64,000 nt of DNA from Massalongia carnosa (Eukaryota). A model generated the notes under the pieces. It did not search any database. It had not been told where the DNA came from and saw nothing but the letters and a program-made list of their open reading frames with translations. Both the position numbers and the translations under genes were made by a program. The DNA lies in the NCBI GenBank assembly GCA_965645245.1, contig OZ287086.1:372001-436000 (forward strand). Direction: 5' to 3'. Below are positions 8,884-61,544 of this stretch, one piece after another (within the stretch, counting starts at the first letter, position 1; every line of letters starts with the position of its first letter).

Positions 8884-9221
8884 ACTGCTGGAACAAAATC
8901 GAAGGTGCGAGAACGAAATCGAAAGTTCCTACACGTTCCATCTACGGTTTGCCCTAGGCGGTGCCGAATTCATCCGAGTGCCGAGGTCGTGCCGAGTAAA
9001 ATTGTGACACCTATCAGTTCAATGAACATAGCACCTACGGCTGCCCTAGATGGACAGGCCAGAAAACCGTAGATGCCGTAATAGGCTTAGTCCCAAGATA
9101 AGATAAGATCACCTCGCTTAGTAGAGGGTGACCAGTCACGCGGCTGACAAAAAAACCGGGACATCAAAATTCTCACCCTACCAAAATCTACCCTTCTCTC
9201 CCTATCTTCAACATCACAATC

Positions 9222-10623
9222 ATGGATGACTCACGCCCACATACTCCAAACATTGAAACTCGAGCTCTATTAGCTCATTATTCTACTCCCACCAAGGCAT
9301 CAGTTTGGGCAGCGGTTCATTTCGCCGATCGTATGAAATTACCGTACTATAAGGAGGATATTTTTCGAACATTCAACGTTAGTCGCACACGTGGCTATGA
9401 AATGCTTCGAAATGAGGACTTTTCTTCTCGCCAACTACACAATAATCCTGATCACAAGGAGACTAGAGGAAGAAAATCCCTGATTTCTTCCGTCAAAATT
9501 CGAGAGATGGAACGAATTTTAGAAGAAGAAGGCATTGAAGCTCGCTCTTTAACGTGGCAGCAGCTAGGCTACGAAGTTGGGCTGGATTGCAGTGGCCGTA
9601 CGATACAAAGAGCAATGGGGACAATGGATTATCATAAGTGCGTGTCTTGTAAGAAGGGCTGGGTCAATGAGCGAACAGCAGCTAAAAGAGTTGAATGGGC
9701 CACATTCATGTTGAATAAATATCCTGAAAAGGAGGACTAGTATTGAGTCAGATTTAGTGATGAAGTTCATTTTGGATGGGGTTCACAAGGCAAGCTACGA
9801 ACCATTCGCAAGCCAACGATACTGTCAAGATTGCATACTGTGGTGGGGTGAACAGGTGAAGGAAGGTGGGTGCTAGGAGGCGGAGCGGCAGGGAGTTTTT
9901 CCGGGGCCCATGCATTTCTTTATAGATAGGAGTCCAGACAGAAAGCTTTTTCATACAGAGATAGTCACATGTACAATCTTTCGAGTTTAGAAGAGTCAGA
10001 GTTCATGTTTCGGTGCTTCTTGTGTCCAGAGTTCTTGTTGTTGTCACGTGTATTTTGTGTTTGCTTTCTCTGTCACCTCGAGGTCATCTAGCTACGCACC
10101 ACCCCTGACTACTCCTTCTCAATACAAGAGGAGCACATGCCGGATAAGAAGAATAAAAAAAGGCATCATTTTTGGGCGGCCGCATGGCACGATTTCAAAT
10201 CTTTCATTTATTTTTATGACGTCTCGGGCAATAAGAATGGAAAAATGAGTCAACGGGTTTATATTGATCAAATTTTAGATCCTATAGTCAAACCGTGGCT
10301 TGATCAGGGGCATAATTTCGTGTTGGAGGAAGATGGTGATTCAGGGCATGGGCCAGGCAAATCAAACATCGTACGCACTTGGAAGGAGGAGCATGGGCTC
10401 GAACATTACTTCATCTCCTGATTTATCGCCCATTGAAAATCGCTGGCAGCCGGTCAAGCAGGAGCTCTACAAATATCCCCATTGGGACGATGAGACCACA
10501 AAAGGGCTGATTTATGAGGGTTGGAGCCACGTTTCTCAAGGTTTTATCAATGAGAAAGTAGCTAGTATGTCCGATCGACTAGAGGCGGTGATTCGAGGTG
10601 AAGGCAAGATGACTGGTTATTGA
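9222..10623 (+). pseudogene. Tc1-like DDE transposase, disrupted by stops, a solo LTR and small deletions
   Basis: VRFSDEVHFG, LEEDGDSGHG, SPDLSPIEN motifs; homologous to 58084-59187. Confidence 0.9.
9839..10121 (+). mobile_element. Solo LTR (283 bp) with 4-bp TSD, inserted in the transposase
   Basis: TG...CA ends; ATAC at 9835-9838 and 10122-10125. Removal restores DCIQEEHMPDKK. Confidence 0.85.
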
Positions 10624-10860
10624 TTATTGATTTGATTGCATGGTAACTGTACGTAGCAAAGTGAAAATTTTGGTGTCCCGGTTTTTTTGTCAGCCGCGTG
10701 CCAGTAATAACTAAGAAAAGATTGCTGCATAGCAACTCTTTATCCTTAACATCACGGTCATACATATCTTTATTATTACAGTCATATAGCCATAGTCATA
10801 TACCTATTTCAACAATGTACTGTGTTGCAACATCGCCGATCTCTTAGAATTTGTTGACTC

Positions 10861-46871: not shown

Positions 46872-48197
46872 CAAAATCGGGTCTAGGAAGTCAGCAAACA
46901 CTTCGCTTAATTTCCCCTCATCTAAATTCCCCCCTTACTTCACCCCCCCCTTTCTACATCAATTTTCATCTGATCAACGAAATGCCTTCTAAACCCAAGA
47001 CGGCCAGACGTGAACACTCGTCTGAAACCATTGCTATCGTTGTAGCCCTTCATGAAGTCCACTTATCCTATGCTGAAATAGCCCGTCAAGTTCGGCTGGC
47101 CCGTTCCACCGTAGTCACCATAGTTCATAGAGCTAAGAGACAAGCCGACGCCTCTTCCGTTCCCAAAAAACGTACTGGTCGGCCAACCAAGCTAAATGTT
47201 CGTGCCAGACGGGCATTGATTCGCCATGTTGAGAAAAATCCACACGATAATTTGCTGGCCCTGACTACCCCTTCCAAATCGGGTCAAAAGCTCTCTCGCG
47301 TCACCGTACGAAAATATCTGAAGCTCGGTGGCTATTTCCGTTTCAGGGCTAGAAAAAAGCCGTTTCTATCAGCACGTCACAAAGCAATCAGACTAAAATG
47401 GGGCAAGGAGCATAAGCATTGGACGGTAGAAGATTGGGGCCGAGTTATATGGACAGATGAAGCTACGTTTGAAACTGGTTTAGACACTCGCTCGTGCTAC
47501 GTCACGAGACGAAAAGGCACGGCCATGGAGTCTAGATATCTGAAGCCTACATTCAAAAGCGGACGAAGCACTGTGGGCATCTGGGCTAGCATACGATTGG
47601 GTGAAAAAGGCCCTATGCTCGTTTTGAATAAGGGGAGACGAATGAATTCAGATATCTACATTGACGAGGTGCTACGGCCTTTAGGGCTCTCGTTTTATGA
47701 AGCATGCTTGACTAGGCGAGGTTTGACGATCTGGATGGATGACGGAGCCAGCTATCATACTTCGAAAAAGGTGATTGATTGGGGAAGACGAAACGGGCTT
47801 TTACGCATGGATTGGCCACCTCAGTCACCCGATTTGAATCCCATTGAGAATCTCTGGCGTATTATCAAAATACGGGTCAGTGCCCGTCGTCACCAAATCC
47901 ATACAATTGAGGCCATGGAGCAGGCTATTCGGGAGGAATGGGCGCTGTTGACTGAGGAGGACTTCAGACGGTGCATTGAGAGCATGCCTGAGCGTATTCG
48001 CTTTCTTATTAAGGCTAAAGGGGGTTCTATTAAATACTGATAACTTAATCTTCTTCAGCATACAGTATTTGACGAAATATGTAGGTTTCAAAGCATCAAG
48101 TTGGAAATTGATTGATTGGGGTGATTTTCATCATTAGGGGTGAGGGGTAAAATGGGGGTGGAACGTGCGCTGTTCGGTCACTTCCTAGACCCGACTG
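46872..48197 (+). mobile_element. Tc1/impala-like DNA transposon
   Basis: Imperfect TIRs (..TCGGGTCTAGGAAGT..); TA at 46870-71 and 48198-99. Confidence 0.88.
46982..48040 (+). CDS. Intact DD34E Tc1-type transposase, 352 aa
   Basis: IWTDEA, WMDDGASYH, SPDLNPIENLW; 34 residues between the second D and E. Confidence 0.93.
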   Translation: MPSKPKTARREHSSETIAIVVALHEVHLSYAEIARQVRLARSTVVTIVHRAKRQADASSVPKKRTGRPTKLNVRARRALIRHVEKNPHDNLLALTTPSKSGQKLSRVTVRKYLKLGGYFRFRARKKPFLSARHKAIRLKWGKEHKHWTVEDWGRVIWTDEATFETGLDTRSCYVTRRKGTAMESRYLKPTFKSGRSTVGIWASIRLGEKGPMLVLNKGRRMNSDIYIDEVLRPLGLSFYEACLTRRGLTIWMDDGASYHTSKKVIDWGRRNGLLRMDWPPQSPDLNPIENLWRIIKIRVSARRHQIHTIEAMEQAIREEWALLTEEDFRRCIESMPERIRFLIKAKGGSIKY

Positions 48198-55475: not shown

Positions 55476-57368
55476 ATGATTAGCACGGCTCGTTCCCTAT
55501 TTAGTGAACTAGTGATACTTTCATTAACTGACCCTCGTCTAGACCGAAGCAACATTAGTTTCACTGCAGCTAGCGCCAATTGCACCCGCAGTGAAATAAA
55601 AGGGGCTGATGAGTCCGCCGCAAGCAATGATGCCGATTGTCTTATGACGAGTACATCTGCATCTCACTGGAAGAGCTGTTCTGAAGCGGCAGCCATACAA
55701 GCCGAACCACGACTCATTGAGTACGGCTCCAGAAATGCTGCCCTTGTCTTGGTGCTCTTGTGTTATCTCGATAGCTCCCAGATAACTACAGGTGTACTGT
55801 ATCGTGGGAGTACTTCTCAAAATCGATGGAGCGAATGTGGCGAGATAGAGGAAGTAGCAGCATATCAAGCGGGTCTTGTTCACGAAGTGGTGACATTGCT
55901 TTCAGATGATACGGAACTTGATCTAGCCTTCAGAAGTCTTCTTGCTGCATCTGCAATCCGGGCGGAACCATGTACGATAGGGCCAACAACCTACGCTGTG
56001 AATGACCAAGTCAAGATTCGAGTATATGAGAACTTGCTTCCCATAGTCAGATCCTTCTGGAGACGTCAAGCGCTTCTGCTAGTGTCCCATGGCTTTCCAC
56101 GGCGATATCTGGATTCTGAGTACGTTGAATGTAGCCTCAGCTTTTCTGATTCTTACTGATCGCCGTGTGTTAGATCTCGAGATATAGGAATATTGCATTT
56201 ACCTCACCTGCAATATACTTTGCAAGCGTTTGACATGCATGAGCAAGATGGAGAATTGCCTATCATTGCGCAGAATGATCTAGTTCTCACTCTTCTGGCG
56301 GCCTCGGAATTACCAGGAAGATGGAAAGAGCATGCAATCACGAGGGTGAGAAGTCTTTCACAGAATATGCAGGATTGCTATCTTGGCGCTTGCGTTGTAC
56401 ATAGGGAAAGTACACGTTATCGCATCCTTGGCCACTTGGAAAGTTCGAGTCTTGCTCTTAGCAGTGTCCATAATGACACCACCCTCCCAAACGACTACTA
56501 AAAGGGAAGAGTCATTCCAAGGGTCCACGCTCAGCTGGGACACTTGACGGTATCATCCGCTATTAACTTCCTACAGCGAGAGAAAATGAAAGAGGCTATA
56601 GATGAGCTTGATCGGTGGAAACCGATCCATCCGGCATCCCCTTCGACAATGGAGCGGGTTGTCCTATATCACATTAAACTCACGCTGGGAAAGGTGTTGC
56701 GTTACCAAGGTCACTTTCACGACGCATTGGCGTGTCTGAACAGGGCGATTTCCCAAATCGGACAAGATGATCTTCTCAACGAGGTTCGACATGATCTATT
56801 ATGCAATCTTGCAGATGTTTATATCAAACTGGACGATCCAATCAGTGCAAAGCAACTGTTGCAAGCGGAACTCAATCGTCTAAATGATCGAAGAAGGGGC
56901 GACCGCATAGAATCGAGACTCTTGAAGCTATCACTGGCGGAAGCTTTGATGCGACAAGAGCAGTATGACGAGGCCGAAGTGCTTTGCTCGGAGATATAGG
57001 CCCGTCACGAATGCGCGTTAGATCTCACAAGATTTGGAAAGCTGCGTTTGTGTATTAGCTTGGCAAGAGTTTCACATATGCGGGCTCAATAGACTAATGC
57101 ACATCGTTATTGGACGGAAGCACTGGCACTCGTCAACAAACACTACCCCCTACACAACGGCCATACCTCGGCTGTGATCCTCTACTCTATGCATCATGTA
57201 TTGTTGGAACACGGGGAGTTTGAATGGAGTCAGAGATCGCTGGAAGAAATGAAGAAAATAGAAAGCACGGCCGAATCTGGGGGTTGTCAGTTTTGGATTG
57301 CAGGCCTGCGATCTTATTGGTTTAACTATGTGCGTAGTGCACTTAGAAATGGGTTTTCGAATACATAA
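55476..57368 (+). pseudogene. TPR-repeat protein pseudogene (resembles the post-NB-ARC/TPR region of fungal STAND proteins)
   Basis: LCYLDSSQI..LYRG..RW, LGKVLRYQGHFHDA, LAEALMRQEQYDEAE. In-frame stops at 56499, 56997 and 57089; intron near 56119-56173. Confidence 0.7.
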
Positions 57369-57959
57369 AGTCTTGATTTTGGAGCATAAGTAGTATACAC
57401 GTGCTGGGGGCGCCCGTCACTTCTAGCAGCAGTAGCATCCATTAAGCTTTACAACTCACCTCAATAAGCCGTCTTTTCTGTTCTCCTTTCTTTCTCTTTT
57501 CTCCTAATCTCCCTCCAATCCGGCGACTTTTCAATTCCTAGCTCCATTATTAATTCACCTACATCTCTCCAAGAGACAACAGTATCTCCACGACTAATGA
57601 ATTTGTGTTTCATGACTGTAGTTAACCGTTTCACTAGCCCGGAATGATTTAACATCCTTCGTAGACATTCAATCCAATTCTTAAGCAGACAACGGAGGGC
57701 AAGCGAATGATACCTCCCTAAACTTTTTCATAAGCCCGTCTACATCCAAGGTCCTACTCTGTCCTGCTGCCGCCGCTGTCGCGAGCGCGGTAACTCCTCC
57801 ACCCCCTCCACCTGTAGCAATAACTAATCGCGTTGACGGCAGCTCTGCCCATAGCCGCGCTCTGCATATTGTCTATAATTAAAATGGGCGGATATGCACC
57901 ATGTAATCATCGACATAGATCATAGTCACCTATAGTAGCACTAAGTGACCATATCTACC

Positions 57960-59286
57960 CACGCGGGTGACAAAATAAATTGCAACGTGTAAGCGAATTT
58001 ACCCCCCCTTTTTTATTCAAATTTTCATCTCATCATCAACCATCATCTGCATAGCTGATAAAATTCATCTAAATTACATGAGATCAATAACCAGTCATCG
58101 CCCCCTTTGCATCTTTTACCTCTTTCAATATTTTGGGCATGGATAACACCCTTTCATTGATAAATTCTTGACTGACTCGAGCCCATCCCTCCCTAATCAG
58201 CTGCTCCAAACTTGCATCGTCCCAATGAGGAAATTTACGAACATGCTGCTTTGCGGGCTGCCAGCAATTTTCAATGGGAGCTAGATCAGGAGATGAAGCA
58301 CAATTGAAATAGTGCTCTAAATCGTGATCTAACTTTCACTTTTTGACCGCGTTTCGTGTCTTGCCCGTGCCATGACCAGAATCTCCATCTTCTTCAAGTA
58401 CGAAGTCATCTCCACGCTCCAACCAGGGCTTGACGACGGGATCAAGAATAGCGTCAATATACACCTGATGAGTCATTTTTCCATTGCTATTGCTGGGCAC
58501 ATCGTAGAAGTAGGTATCCGACTTGAAATTGTAACCAACTGCTGCCCAGCAGTGCTTTCTTTTACGATCTTTCTCAGGTGGTGCATCACGATGCTGAATA
58601 CAATCCCAACGATATCTTGTTCCGGGCTTACGAATGATTCGTAACTGTCCTTCAGGCCCGTAGCCAAAATGAATCTCATCGCTGAATCGTACGCGATGCC
58701 AGTCTTCGGACCGAGGATATTTATTTAACATAACTGTAGCAAATTCTTCTCTTCTTTCTTCTGATGCCATTGCCAGCCACCCTTTGACACAGGCTAGATA
58801 TTTGTGATAATTCAAGGCAGCTGTAAGAGTTCTCTTCATTGTACGTCCCATCACGTCGGCCCCAATCTCCTGTGCTAAAGCATCCCATGTGTAGCGTTTT
58901 CCTTCCAATTGTAGATCTTGATCCTGCAGAATGTGATCTGCCTCCTTCAGCTGATCATCACTAATCTTTCGCTTTCGACCCCGAGTCTCAACGAGAGAAG
59001 AATTGTGACGTGTGCGAGAAGAAGCTCCGCTTTTGATGATGTTATAGCCCGCGCGCTCGGCCACGCCAAATTCCTGAAAAATGGCCCGTGGATCGAATGG
59101 AATTGCATGTGAGATGAGAAATTGATAAGCTCCTTGAACTTTGGCCTTTGTGGGAGTATCATAATGAGGCTTTTTGGGTCGAGACATTGATGATGAGATA
59201 AAAAGTTGAAAAAAAGGAGGGTGTTTTGATGGGGCATTCAGGGTTAAATTCGCTTACACGTTGCAATTTATTTTGTCACCCGCGTG
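57960..59286 (-). mobile_element. IS630/Tc1-like DNA transposon with CACGCGG termini and 5-bp TSD
   Basis: Perfect 42-bp TIRs 57960-58001 and 59245-59286, flanked by CTACC at 57955-59 and 59287-91. Confidence 0.94.
58084..59187 (-). pseudogene. DD38E transposase (367 aa if repaired) with one premature TGA
   Basis: VRFSDEIHFG, LEEDGDSGHG, SSPDLAPIENCW. TGA at 58336-38 aligns with W in the paralog. Confidence 0.92.
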
Positions 59287-59310
59287 CTACCGTAGTTGTG
59301 TAACGGCATA

Positions 59311-61252
59311 ATCGTGCTAGACCACTTTCGGAATGCAGAGAGCACCCCTTAGTGCTTACCGGCTCAAAGACGCTACCGGCTCAAAGACGCATTTTCAACA
59401 TTTTACACCTCAACTTCGACACGTCAACAATCAACAACATAATGGTCAATTCATATTCAGCTATCGAGGATCGAATTGACAGTGCAATTGACGCGTTACA
59501 TGATGGTTTGTATACTAATTGTCGAGCTGCAGCTATAGCTTTTGACGTTGCCCCTCGTACGGTTCAAAAACGATGGAATGGAGGCAACTCCAAAAGCAGT
59601 CGACCTAGTACCAACAAAGCTCTGACGGATGAGCAAGAACAAGCTGTTCGTGACTACATCGAGCGATTGGACAAGGCCAACATGTGTGCGCGACCCAAAT
59701 TGATCGTGGGGGCTGCAAATTATCTGATTCGTTTTGAGAATCGTACTCTTGGTCATCAGTGGCTGAAGCGATTTCTTGATCGAAATCCCGAGCTTCATGT
59801 ACGAAAACAGAAGCCTCTCGCAGTCGATCGAAAAAATAGTCACGACGTTAACGATATGGTTGAATATTTCAGCAAATTAGAAAGGGTGATGAGGGAAAAG
59901 GGAATAACGGAGCTGGATGTATGGAATATGGACGAAACAGGCTTTCGAATTGGATGCGGACGAGCTCAAATAGTAATCACCTTGGACCCACGAAAGCCTC
60001 TTCGTATGACTGATCCGGATAATCGTGACTACATTACTTCTGTAGAGTGTATCAGCTCGGCCGGTGACGTTATTCCACCATTACTTATTCTTTCGGGTAT
60101 TCATATTCTTCATAAATGGTGTCAACACAACGATCTCGACGGAGAGACGTTGATTGGGACCAGCGAGACCGGCTATTCAAATGACGATTTAGCCATGGAT
60201 TGGCTTCGTCATTTCATCGAGCATACACGGACTAAAAGACGTGGAGCTTGGCTACTTCTAGTCATCGACGGGTTTGGGTCTCATTCAACCATTCCGTTTT
60301 TGAAGCTGGCCACTGAAAATCAGATCGTTCTATTTCGTCTTCCAGCACATTCTACTCATTTGACTCAGCCGTTAGATGTAGGTGTTTTTCAGCCGTACAA
60401 ACACTATCATGCTGAGGCCATTGATCATGCGATACGAATGGGAGACACGGAATTTGGAAAATTGGAATTTTTAGCCGCATTCCAGGAATTTCGCAACAAG
60501 ACATTCAAATCATCTACTATTCGTCATGCATTCAGGACCACCGGCATCGTCCCATTCAATCCGAACATGGTACTCGACGTCATTCGTCAGAAGCAAGCTG
60601 CAGCCTTGGAAATTAGGAATGAACCCCGCACCCCGAGCCCCCTACCTCTTCAATTTCATGAGCGCACCCCTCGAGGCCCCGAATCAATCAGAAAATTCGG
60701 TCACAAATTGCAAAGGGCATTGACCGCGGCCGGGCCGATCGGTGGATGGATGGATAAAAAAACAGTGGACGGTTTTCAGAAATTTATTAGGGCCTCCATC
60801 ACCTCCGCCAACACCCTAGATTTGACTACGCGGGACCTTCAGCAAGTGCAAAAAGCCACCACATCGCGTAAAAGTCGGGCCGCTCTCGGGGGTCAGGTAG
60901 CTGCAAAGGGTGGAGTCATAAAAGTCAGTCAATGTAGAGAATTATGTTCAATTCGTCAAAAAAAAGAGGAAGAAAAGGCTAGACGAAAGGAACAAAGGGA
61001 GGCTAATAAGGGGAAAAAGGCCTCATCAACCCAGTTAGACAACGTCCGATTTTTACTAGGGCAGGGCCTGTTAGTAGAACAGACTGAGCAGTAGATTTTA
61101 AACCCGAAATGAAGCTATTTAGACGTCTTTTCATGAAGGTCTGATTTTTTTAATGTTGAGGTGTTGAAAAATGCGTCTTTGAGCCGGTAGCGTCTTTGAG
61201 CCGGTAAGCACTAAGGGGTGCTCTCTGCATTCCGAAAGTGGTCTAGCACGAT
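59311..61252 (+). mobile_element. pogo/Fot1-like DNA transposon
   Basis: About 90-bp TIRs ATCGTGCTAGACCACTTTCGG...; TA at 59309-10 and 61253-54. Confidence 0.95.
59442..61094 (+). CDS. Intact pogo/Fot1-type transposase, 550 aa
   Basis: WNMDETG, VIDGFGSH, TQPLDVG motifs. Confidence 0.93.
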   Translation: MVNSYSAIEDRIDSAIDALHDGLYTNCRAAAIAFDVAPRTVQKRWNGGNSKSSRPSTNKALTDEQEQAVRDYIERLDKANMCARPKLIVGAANYLIRFENRTLGHQWLKRFLDRNPELHVRKQKPLAVDRKNSHDVNDMVEYFSKLERVMREKGITELDVWNMDETGFRIGCGRAQIVITLDPRKPLRMTDPDNRDYITSVECISSAGDVIPPLLILSGIHILHKWCQHNDLDGETLIGTSETGYSNDDLAMDWLRHFIEHTRTKRRGAWLLLVIDGFGSHSTIPFLKLATENQIVLFRLPAHSTHLTQPLDVGVFQPYKHYHAEAIDHAIRMGDTEFGKLEFLAAFQEFRNKTFKSSTIRHAFRTTGIVPFNPNMVLDVIRQKQAAALEIRNEPRTPSPLPLQFHERTPRGPESIRKFGHKLQRALTAAGPIGGWMDKKTVDGFQKFIRASITSANTLDLTTRDLQQVQKATTSRKSRAALGGQVAAKGGVIKVSQCRELCSIRQKKEEEKARRKEQREANKGKKASSTQLDNVRFLLGQGLLVEQTEQ

Positions 61253-61544
61253 TAATGTTAAAATTACTACGGAGGTGACTGCAGGGCTGAGCTAGAACTA
61301 ATGGGGCTAAGCGAGTATTCCAACACATCCCGTTCACGTGCCGTTGTTCACAGACTAACGGCAGAGATTATGTAATAAGCGAGACAAGCTCATACAAAAT
61401 TCTCTTCTTGTAAATTTAGGCTTAGAGGATTCATCATAAAAATCCGTCAATAAATCAATCATCTATTTCACTATCAAGAGATATTCTTCTGACGTAAATA
61501 TAAATTCATCATAGAGCTCATTGTTATCATACATTCAGCTCAAC

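Follow-up and report, generated by a model that had tools for sequence, protein, structure and literature searches.

A fungal Tc1-type transposon family flanked by 5-bp repeats instead of TA appears to cut its target DNA differently

We investigated a Tc1-like transposon, referred to below as element A, in a 64,000-nucleotide stretch of DNA from Massalongia carnosa (assembly GCA_965645245.1, contig OZ287086.1, positions 372,001 to 436,000 of the forward strand). The whole of this stretch is called the window, and all coordinates are counted from its first base. Element A was delimited by detection of terminal inverted repeats (TIRs) together with reading of the flanks, and its features are as follows.

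57960..59286: element A, a Tc1-like transposon of 1327 bp, its transposase being encoded on the minus strand
57960..58005, plus strand: left TIR, starting CACGCGGGTGACAAAA; 46 nt, 98% complementary to 59241-59286, the first 42 perfectly
59241..59286, minus strand: right TIR, pairing with 57960-58005
57955..57959: left 5-bp target-site duplication, CTACC; same as 59287-59291, with different bases beyond
59287..59291: right 5-bp duplication, CTACC
58087..59187, minus strand: transposase frame of 367 codons, DD38E (D170, D267, E306), with an RGRK linker motif
58336..58338, minus strand: in-frame TGA at codon 284, the sole stop in the transposase frame; relatives have tryptophan there

A preliminary description of this DNA had reported perfect 42-bp TIRs bordered by a CTACC direct repeat with no TA at either end, and both statements were borne out. 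The two TIRs are identical at 45 of 46 positions, the sole mismatch falling at position 43, and a direct reading of 57955-57959 and 59287-59291 gives CTACC on both sides with TA adjoining neither end of the element. Since the bases outward of the two CTACC copies differ, the repeat is exactly 5 bp long. The right boundary is independently confirmed by a contig of run X7 that carries another copy of element A, as the match ends exactly at 59286 and is followed by unlike sequence. Within the window the 28-nt terminal sequence is confined to these two ends, with 0 expected from 100 shuffles.

The transposase frame contains the motifs RFSDE, EEDGDSGH and SPDLAPIENCW, and 38 residues separate D267 from E306; these two residues and D170 show little or no variation among the aligned relatives. 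The IS630/Tc1 motifs and DD38E spacing described earlier are therefore present in the minus-strand frame, and the TGA at 58336-58338 is, as also described, the one stop between this copy and a full-length enzyme. Tryptophan occupies the position of codon 284 in 12 of 12 aligned relatives, and contigs of four public runs have C at 58336, which restores TGG. Element A is thus one substitution short of the intact form of its family. In Pfam searches the read-through protein matched DDE_3 with an expectation value (E) of 1.5e-9. This domain is present in 24 of 26 aligned family proteins and the helix-turn-helix (HTH) domain HTH_Tnp_Tc3_2 in 13 of 26; the latter was not detected in the element A protein itself at E up to 1. 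The top solved structure matched by sequence was the Sleeping Beauty catalytic domain (PDB 5cr4, E 3.9e-9). An AlphaFold model of an intact relative, with a mean predicted local distance difference test score of 80, has helical bundles at residues 13-53 and 77-125, and a Foldseek search with that model again returned the Sleeping Beauty catalytic domain first (E 4.5e-11, 28% identity), followed by Mos1 (transpososomes) and SETMAR. No match resembling RAG1 or Transib was found in Pfam (E up to 1) or in the sequence and fold searches. Judged by the sequence and predicted fold of its protein, the enzyme of element A belongs to the Tc1 type within the IS630-Tc1-mariner group.

A further member of the family, element B, lies on the plus strand of the window and is decayed.

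9137..10700, plus strand: element B, a decayed relative of element A, 1564 bp, with 40-nt TIRs starting CACGCGGCTGACAAAA
9132..9136: left 5-bp duplication, CCAGT
10701..10705: right 5-bp duplication, CCAGT

TA adjoins neither end of element B, and CCAGT contains no TA. Its transposase frame is in pieces, the best segments being about 60% identical to element A. Element B is about 240 bp longer than element A, its transposase match is interrupted at about 9815-10119, and there is a frame shift near 10400.

Relatives of element A are widespread. A profile search of 1.84 billion representative proteins returned 457 clusters with E no higher than 1e-30, and 14,424 when the limit was set at 0.001. 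Named members belong to Pyrenophora, Botrytis, Clathrospora, Bimuria and Pseudogymnoascus (Dothideomycetes and Leotiomycetes). Searches of 185,579 prokaryote species genomes and of viral contigs gave no relative. Family members are currently annotated as 'hypothetical protein' or 'HMG box protein', and related elements with detected ends measure 1237-1754 bp. One relative, P0002, is a stop-free protein from a cluster of 43 member sequences and is 98% identical to the element A protein. One run that holds part of the stretch carries the label lichen metagenome. Because its ends are nearly identical, a 98% identical relative is free of stops and other copies have TGG in place of TGA, element A appears to have been active recently. 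In two runs the summed contig depth over element A was far greater than that over its left flank, although such depth is not a copy number.

We then asked what flanks the other members of the family. DNA of relatives was fetched from public metagenome contigs at 80 loci, and element boundaries were set, with the flanks unseen, where the sequence best fitted the terminal motif CACGCGG. For a strict count, neither end was allowed more than one mismatch to this motif, and 10 nt or more of flank was required on each side. Loci L005, L026, L031 and L073 were removed as the same insertion in another assembly, and L015 and L029 for their short flanks, leaving 24 unique insertions (22 from metagenomes and the 2 in the window). 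A perfect 5-bp flanking repeat was present at 17 of these 24 (15 of the 22 metagenome insertions and both window copies), and a further one, L022, matched at four of five positions. Mismatched pairs of left and right flanks, used as controls, matched at all five positions in just 3 of 552 cases. None of the 17 perfect repeats reached 6 bp. TA lay next to an element end once among the 24 sites, on one side only, and at no site on both. Ends that diverge from the motif (CAAGTGG, CTCGCATG, CACAGCGG and a subfamily with CTTGGCGG) were placed by hand, and these added nine perfect 5-bp repeats and one miss. Among the resulting 26 perfect sites (elements A and B and 24 loci) there are 23 different 5-mers, so the repeats do not belong to the element itself. 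A quick maximum-likelihood tree built from 57 translated rows places insertions bearing the 5-bp repeat in all larger subclades. TA flanks, absent duplications and constant 5-mers, three of the outcomes that the preliminary description had named as speaking against it, were not what the other copies revealed. Its proposal of a Tc1-related fungal lineage with altered target geometry is instead supported by the Tc1-type protein, the fungal relatives and the recurrence of varied 5-mers.

The consensus of 68 termini is CACGCGGGTGACAAAAAAAG, in which C1, C3, G4, C5, G6, G7 and a run of A are the most constant positions. A target profile was compiled from the 26 sites with perfect repeats, which is a small sample, and six positions showed a preference.

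Position -3: T in 13 of 26, p 0.007
Position -2: A in 18 of 26, p 1e-5
First duplicated base: C in 20 of 26, p 7e-9
Second duplicated base: C in 16 of 26, p 2.5e-5
Position +2: T in 16 of 26, p 1e-4
Position +3: A in 20 of 26, p 2e-7

The preferred site is a GC-rich core with a TA step one base outside it on each side, roughly TA-S/CCNNN/S-TA with slashes at the edges of the duplicated bases. At these 26 sites the flanking TA steps are mirror-symmetric and the core is not. A widespread fungal Tc1-type family with 5-bp duplications at a GC-core site flanked by TA steps is real, and, since TA duplication marks the superfamily, this branch appears to cut target DNA in another way.

Taken together, these data make it very probable that element A, active until recently and now carrying a single mutation, is a copy from a cut-and-paste family of Pezizomycotina, whose Tc1-type DDE enzyme joins the transposon ends to target phosphates 5 bp apart, not 2 bp apart at TA. 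Under the mechanism that we propose, an N-terminal pair of HTH domains and the nearly invariant RGR(K) linker would bind the TIRs, the linker possibly contacting the A-run. A dimer would excise the element at its CAC...GTG boundaries, and the two 3'-OH ends would attack the target with a 5-nt 5' stagger, after which gap repair by the host would yield the 5-bp duplication. The flexible TA steps on either side may help to bend the target, a putative role that would let active sites suited to a 2-bp stagger reach phosphates 5 bp apart. Since no insertion, excision or empty site was observed, this mechanism is based on comparative anatomy.

Several observations weigh against this interpretation. 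Flanks match at three or fewer of five positions in 6 of the 24 strict insertions (L009, L013, L023, L044, L065 and L068), and the same is true of the hand-checked L052/L054, L018, L071 and L015. The left end of L034, L047 and L062, which belong to one subfamily, was placed with the flanks visible, and these three count for less. In a sister lineage with CAAGGCC ends, L046/L057, the flanks of one copy repeat over 7 bp and those of its counterpart do not repeat. The core of the target site is lopsided relative to the direction of the transposase gene, with C as the first base at 20 of 26 sites and G as the fifth at only 9 of 26; this is not predicted by a symmetric dimer, and it rests on 26 sites. 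Over 57300-59900, no contig of the four public runs bridges the site of element A, and when the left and right flanks of all fetched insertions were each used as queries against every locus and the window, in no case did the two lie adjacent. As no empty allele, excision or insertion event was seen, the duplication is read from the flanks alone. With regard to the insertions without a repeat, the flanks of L009 would match with a one-base shift, and L009, L015, L022, L052 and L068 each adjoin a close relative with the repeat in the quick tree. Such placements would fit decayed flanks, recombination among copies or chimeras in the metagenome assemblies, as opposed to a difference between lineages. 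The L046/L057 lineage might mark the point at which the duplication length changed. Its two copies (L046 668-2024 and L057 226-1585) have ends CAAGGCCTGGCCAAAAAAAG, the 7-bp repeat is CCCAGGT, and the pair is sister to the whole family in the quick tree.

Among the alternatives, the one that survives best leaves the biology as described and holds that Repbase, Dfam or a paper in a subscription journal already lists the family together with its 5-bp duplication. The family is large, with its 457 clusters at the stricter threshold, and it occurs in the well-studied Pyrenophora and Botrytis, so that curated consensus sequences are likely to exist. On the other hand, no Tc1-like family with a 5-bp duplication was found in the accessible full text of the literature on fungal and Tc1-type transposons, a scope that stops short of Repbase, Dfam and most subscription journals and supplements. 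Papers up to 2026 still give TA as the mark of the superfamily in the parts available (PMC13469147, PMC7731502), and the members' annotations go no further than those noted above. We regard an existing catalogue entry as unlikely, though with an appreciable chance of being found.

Much less probable is that the 5-mers were not made on insertion, being constant outer bases of the element or pre-existing tandem repeats, or that insertion really duplicates only 3 bp and each TIR extends one paired base further out. The lack of any empty site among the four-run contigs and fetched loci is compatible with this, and at L019, L028, L036, L072, L075 and L076 a first C and fifth G would let each TIR take in one more base, leaving a 3-bp repeat. 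However, the variety of 5-mers at the perfect sites is not that of element sequence, and a full 5-bp repeat accompanies unpairable outer bases in CTACC, CCAGT, CCTGC, ACCCC, CCTAC, CCACC and CGTAA, which excludes a 3-bp duplication as the general rule. It would be far-fetched to suppose that tandem 5-mers were already in place at 17 or more unrelated sites. We consider this alternative very improbable.

Two further alternatives have almost nothing left to recommend them. That element A is an ordinary TA-duplicating Tc1/mariner transposon, its 5-mers being coincidence or the product of misplaced boundaries, has in its favor the stated hallmark of the superfamily (PMC7325037, PMC7731502, in the text available) and the TA inside CTACC, but it is scarcely credible given that elements A and B lack TA at every end, that CCAGT has none within it, that perfect repeats so far outnumber those of the control pairs with a one-sided TA seen once, and that the boundaries came from the TIR motif and not from the flanks. 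That it is a Transib-type or other non-Tc1 transposon has in its favor the CAC-initial ends, the 5-bp duplication, the GC-rich targets and the A-rich block just inside the end (compare PMC1131882, in part), but a 367-residue DDE_3 protein whose sequence and fold match those of Sleeping Beauty and Mos1, the absence of any RAG1/Transib-like Pfam match at E up to 1, and an A-rich block about 5 nt from the heptamer here versus 23 bp in Transib leave it practically no chance.

The family can be compared with several known systems. Like the Tc1 family (Sleeping Beauty, fungal impala), it has one gene between short TIRs in an element of about 1.3 kb, within the 1.3-2.4 kb class, and its proteins share the DDE_3 domain, the DDE triad, the SPDLxPIEN motif and, in relatives, a Tc3-type HTH N-terminus. 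Unlike the Tc1 family, it duplicates five variable bases instead of TA, at a GC-rich core flanked by TA steps, and unlike Tc1 proper (DD34E) it has 38 residues and not 34 between the second D and the E. Tc1-type ends begin CAGT, and the ends of the present family begin CACGCGG. The nearest precedent for leaving plain TA is provided by Tc4 and Tc5 of Caenorhabditis elegans, which belong to this superfamily and duplicate TNA; theirs are three bases that still include T and A, whereas here there are five with no fixed sequence. Element A does not qualify for the bacterial IS630 family: the NCBIfam IS630 model NF033545 matched at E 3.3e-16 with 59.6 bits, under its cut-off of 100, and the prokaryote genomes searched gave no relative. 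As far as the accessible text goes, TA duplication is given as the superfamily mark in PMC7325037, PMC7731502 and PMC13469147 (2026). The 38-residue spacing equals that of Intruder (DD38E, animals), although equal spacing alone is no evidence of membership. In the available text of PMC7731502, a search of all kingdoms including fungi gave Intruder hits only in animals and TA insertion is stated for Tc1/mariner; the family described here, by contrast, is fungal and has 5-bp duplications. Papers on fungal Tc1/mariner elements (Sclerotinia, Paracoccidioides, Zymoseptoria, Diutina and powdery mildew) describe, in the parts available, elements that duplicate TA or are of pogo type. Two unclassified miniature-element families of Zymoseptoria have 5-6-bp duplications (PMC4522978, seen in part), and could not be related to the present family.

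In target geometry the family resembles Transib, which Kapitonov and Jurka presented in 2005 as unique among eukaryotic DNA-transposon superfamilies in its 5-bp duplications; its targets are GC-rich, and its ends consist of CACAATG and, 23 bp further in, an A-rich nonamer (PMC1131882, in part). The present family shares with Transib the 5-bp duplication, the preference for GC-rich targets, the CAC-initial ends and an A-rich block further in. Unlike it, Transib has a transposase of about 700 residues that is of RAG1 type and unrelated, and its heptamer and A-block are spaced by 23 bp, not about 5 nt. The preliminary description had pointed to a Transib/RAG signature; CAC ends and 5-bp duplications are indeed described for Transib, but the protein is not RAG1/Transib-like, and this part of the comparison is analogy only. 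By protein sequence and modeled fold, the resemblance is convergent.

More broadly, we tentatively suggest that a Pezizomycotina-wide branch of Tc1 moved strand transfer from the shared TA to phosphates 5 bp apart over a GC-rich core, with the TA steps displaced one base outward. This may be the first IS630-Tc1-mariner lineage without T and A in its duplication, with Transib/RAG-like ends and geometry having converged on an unrelated scaffold, and it may have gone undescribed despite its presence in many of the fungal genomes sequenced; the combined claim is one that we hold with some doubt. TA duplication is used as a defining mark and is built into classifiers, and a 5-bp branch would be mis-sorted by them or left unclassified. 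The family offers a natural experiment in how a DDE dimer sets the distance between two target cuts. Its enzyme is so similar to those of Sleeping Beauty and Mos1 that their structures can be compared directly, yet its stagger differs, as does its target, which is partly palindromic. This is relevant to engineering where gene-transfer tools of the Sleeping Beauty type insert. It would also indicate that CAC ends with GC-rich 5-bp duplications, the Transib/RAG signature, can arise independently.

Additional features of the fetched loci and the window were recorded. Three of the insertions with unmatched flanks, L013, L044 and L068, all have CCTGG on the left. One old insertion is common to seven contigs of different assemblies (L002, L006, L008, L037, L038, L055 and L064); its right flank begins CGTGGGTAGTAG, and the left terminus with its adjacent flank is deleted in L037, L038 and L064. 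No credible TIRs were found, gapped search included, at the distant loci L003, L007, L012, L032, L041, L059, L061, L063 and L066. The window contains no uninterrupted paralogue of the flanks of element A or B. When the window and loci were scanned for small non-autonomous copies, only a 79-bp candidate in L043 was found (240-318). It is a non-coding pair of family-type ends (CACGCGGTGAGCAAAATAAT, 17 of 20 paired) with unrepeated flanks, and it may be a miniature derivative.

A distant Tc1-like copy, element C, lies at 46872-48197 and is 28% identical to element A over the catalytic half. Its ends, TA/CA...CTG/TA, fit the usual TA duplication, and a 5-nt CTGTA is also present on both sides. Element C was considered as an in-window control of TA type and discarded as evidence, since the CTGTA allows an alternative reading and there is one decayed copy.

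A pogo/Fot1-type transposon occupies 59309-61254, 17 bp to the right of the right-hand duplication of element A. Its frame at 59352-61094 encodes 580 amino acids with DDE_1 and HTH_Tnp_Tc5 domains, and its TIRs are about 93 nt long and 99% identical. The left boundary of this element is set by the exact point, 59309, where contigs of three runs diverge. Within its left end, at 59357-59390, the 17-nt unit TACCGGCTCAAAGACGC occurs twice in tandem. One run X4 contig skips 35 nt at this repeat, and copies of the element seem to differ there.

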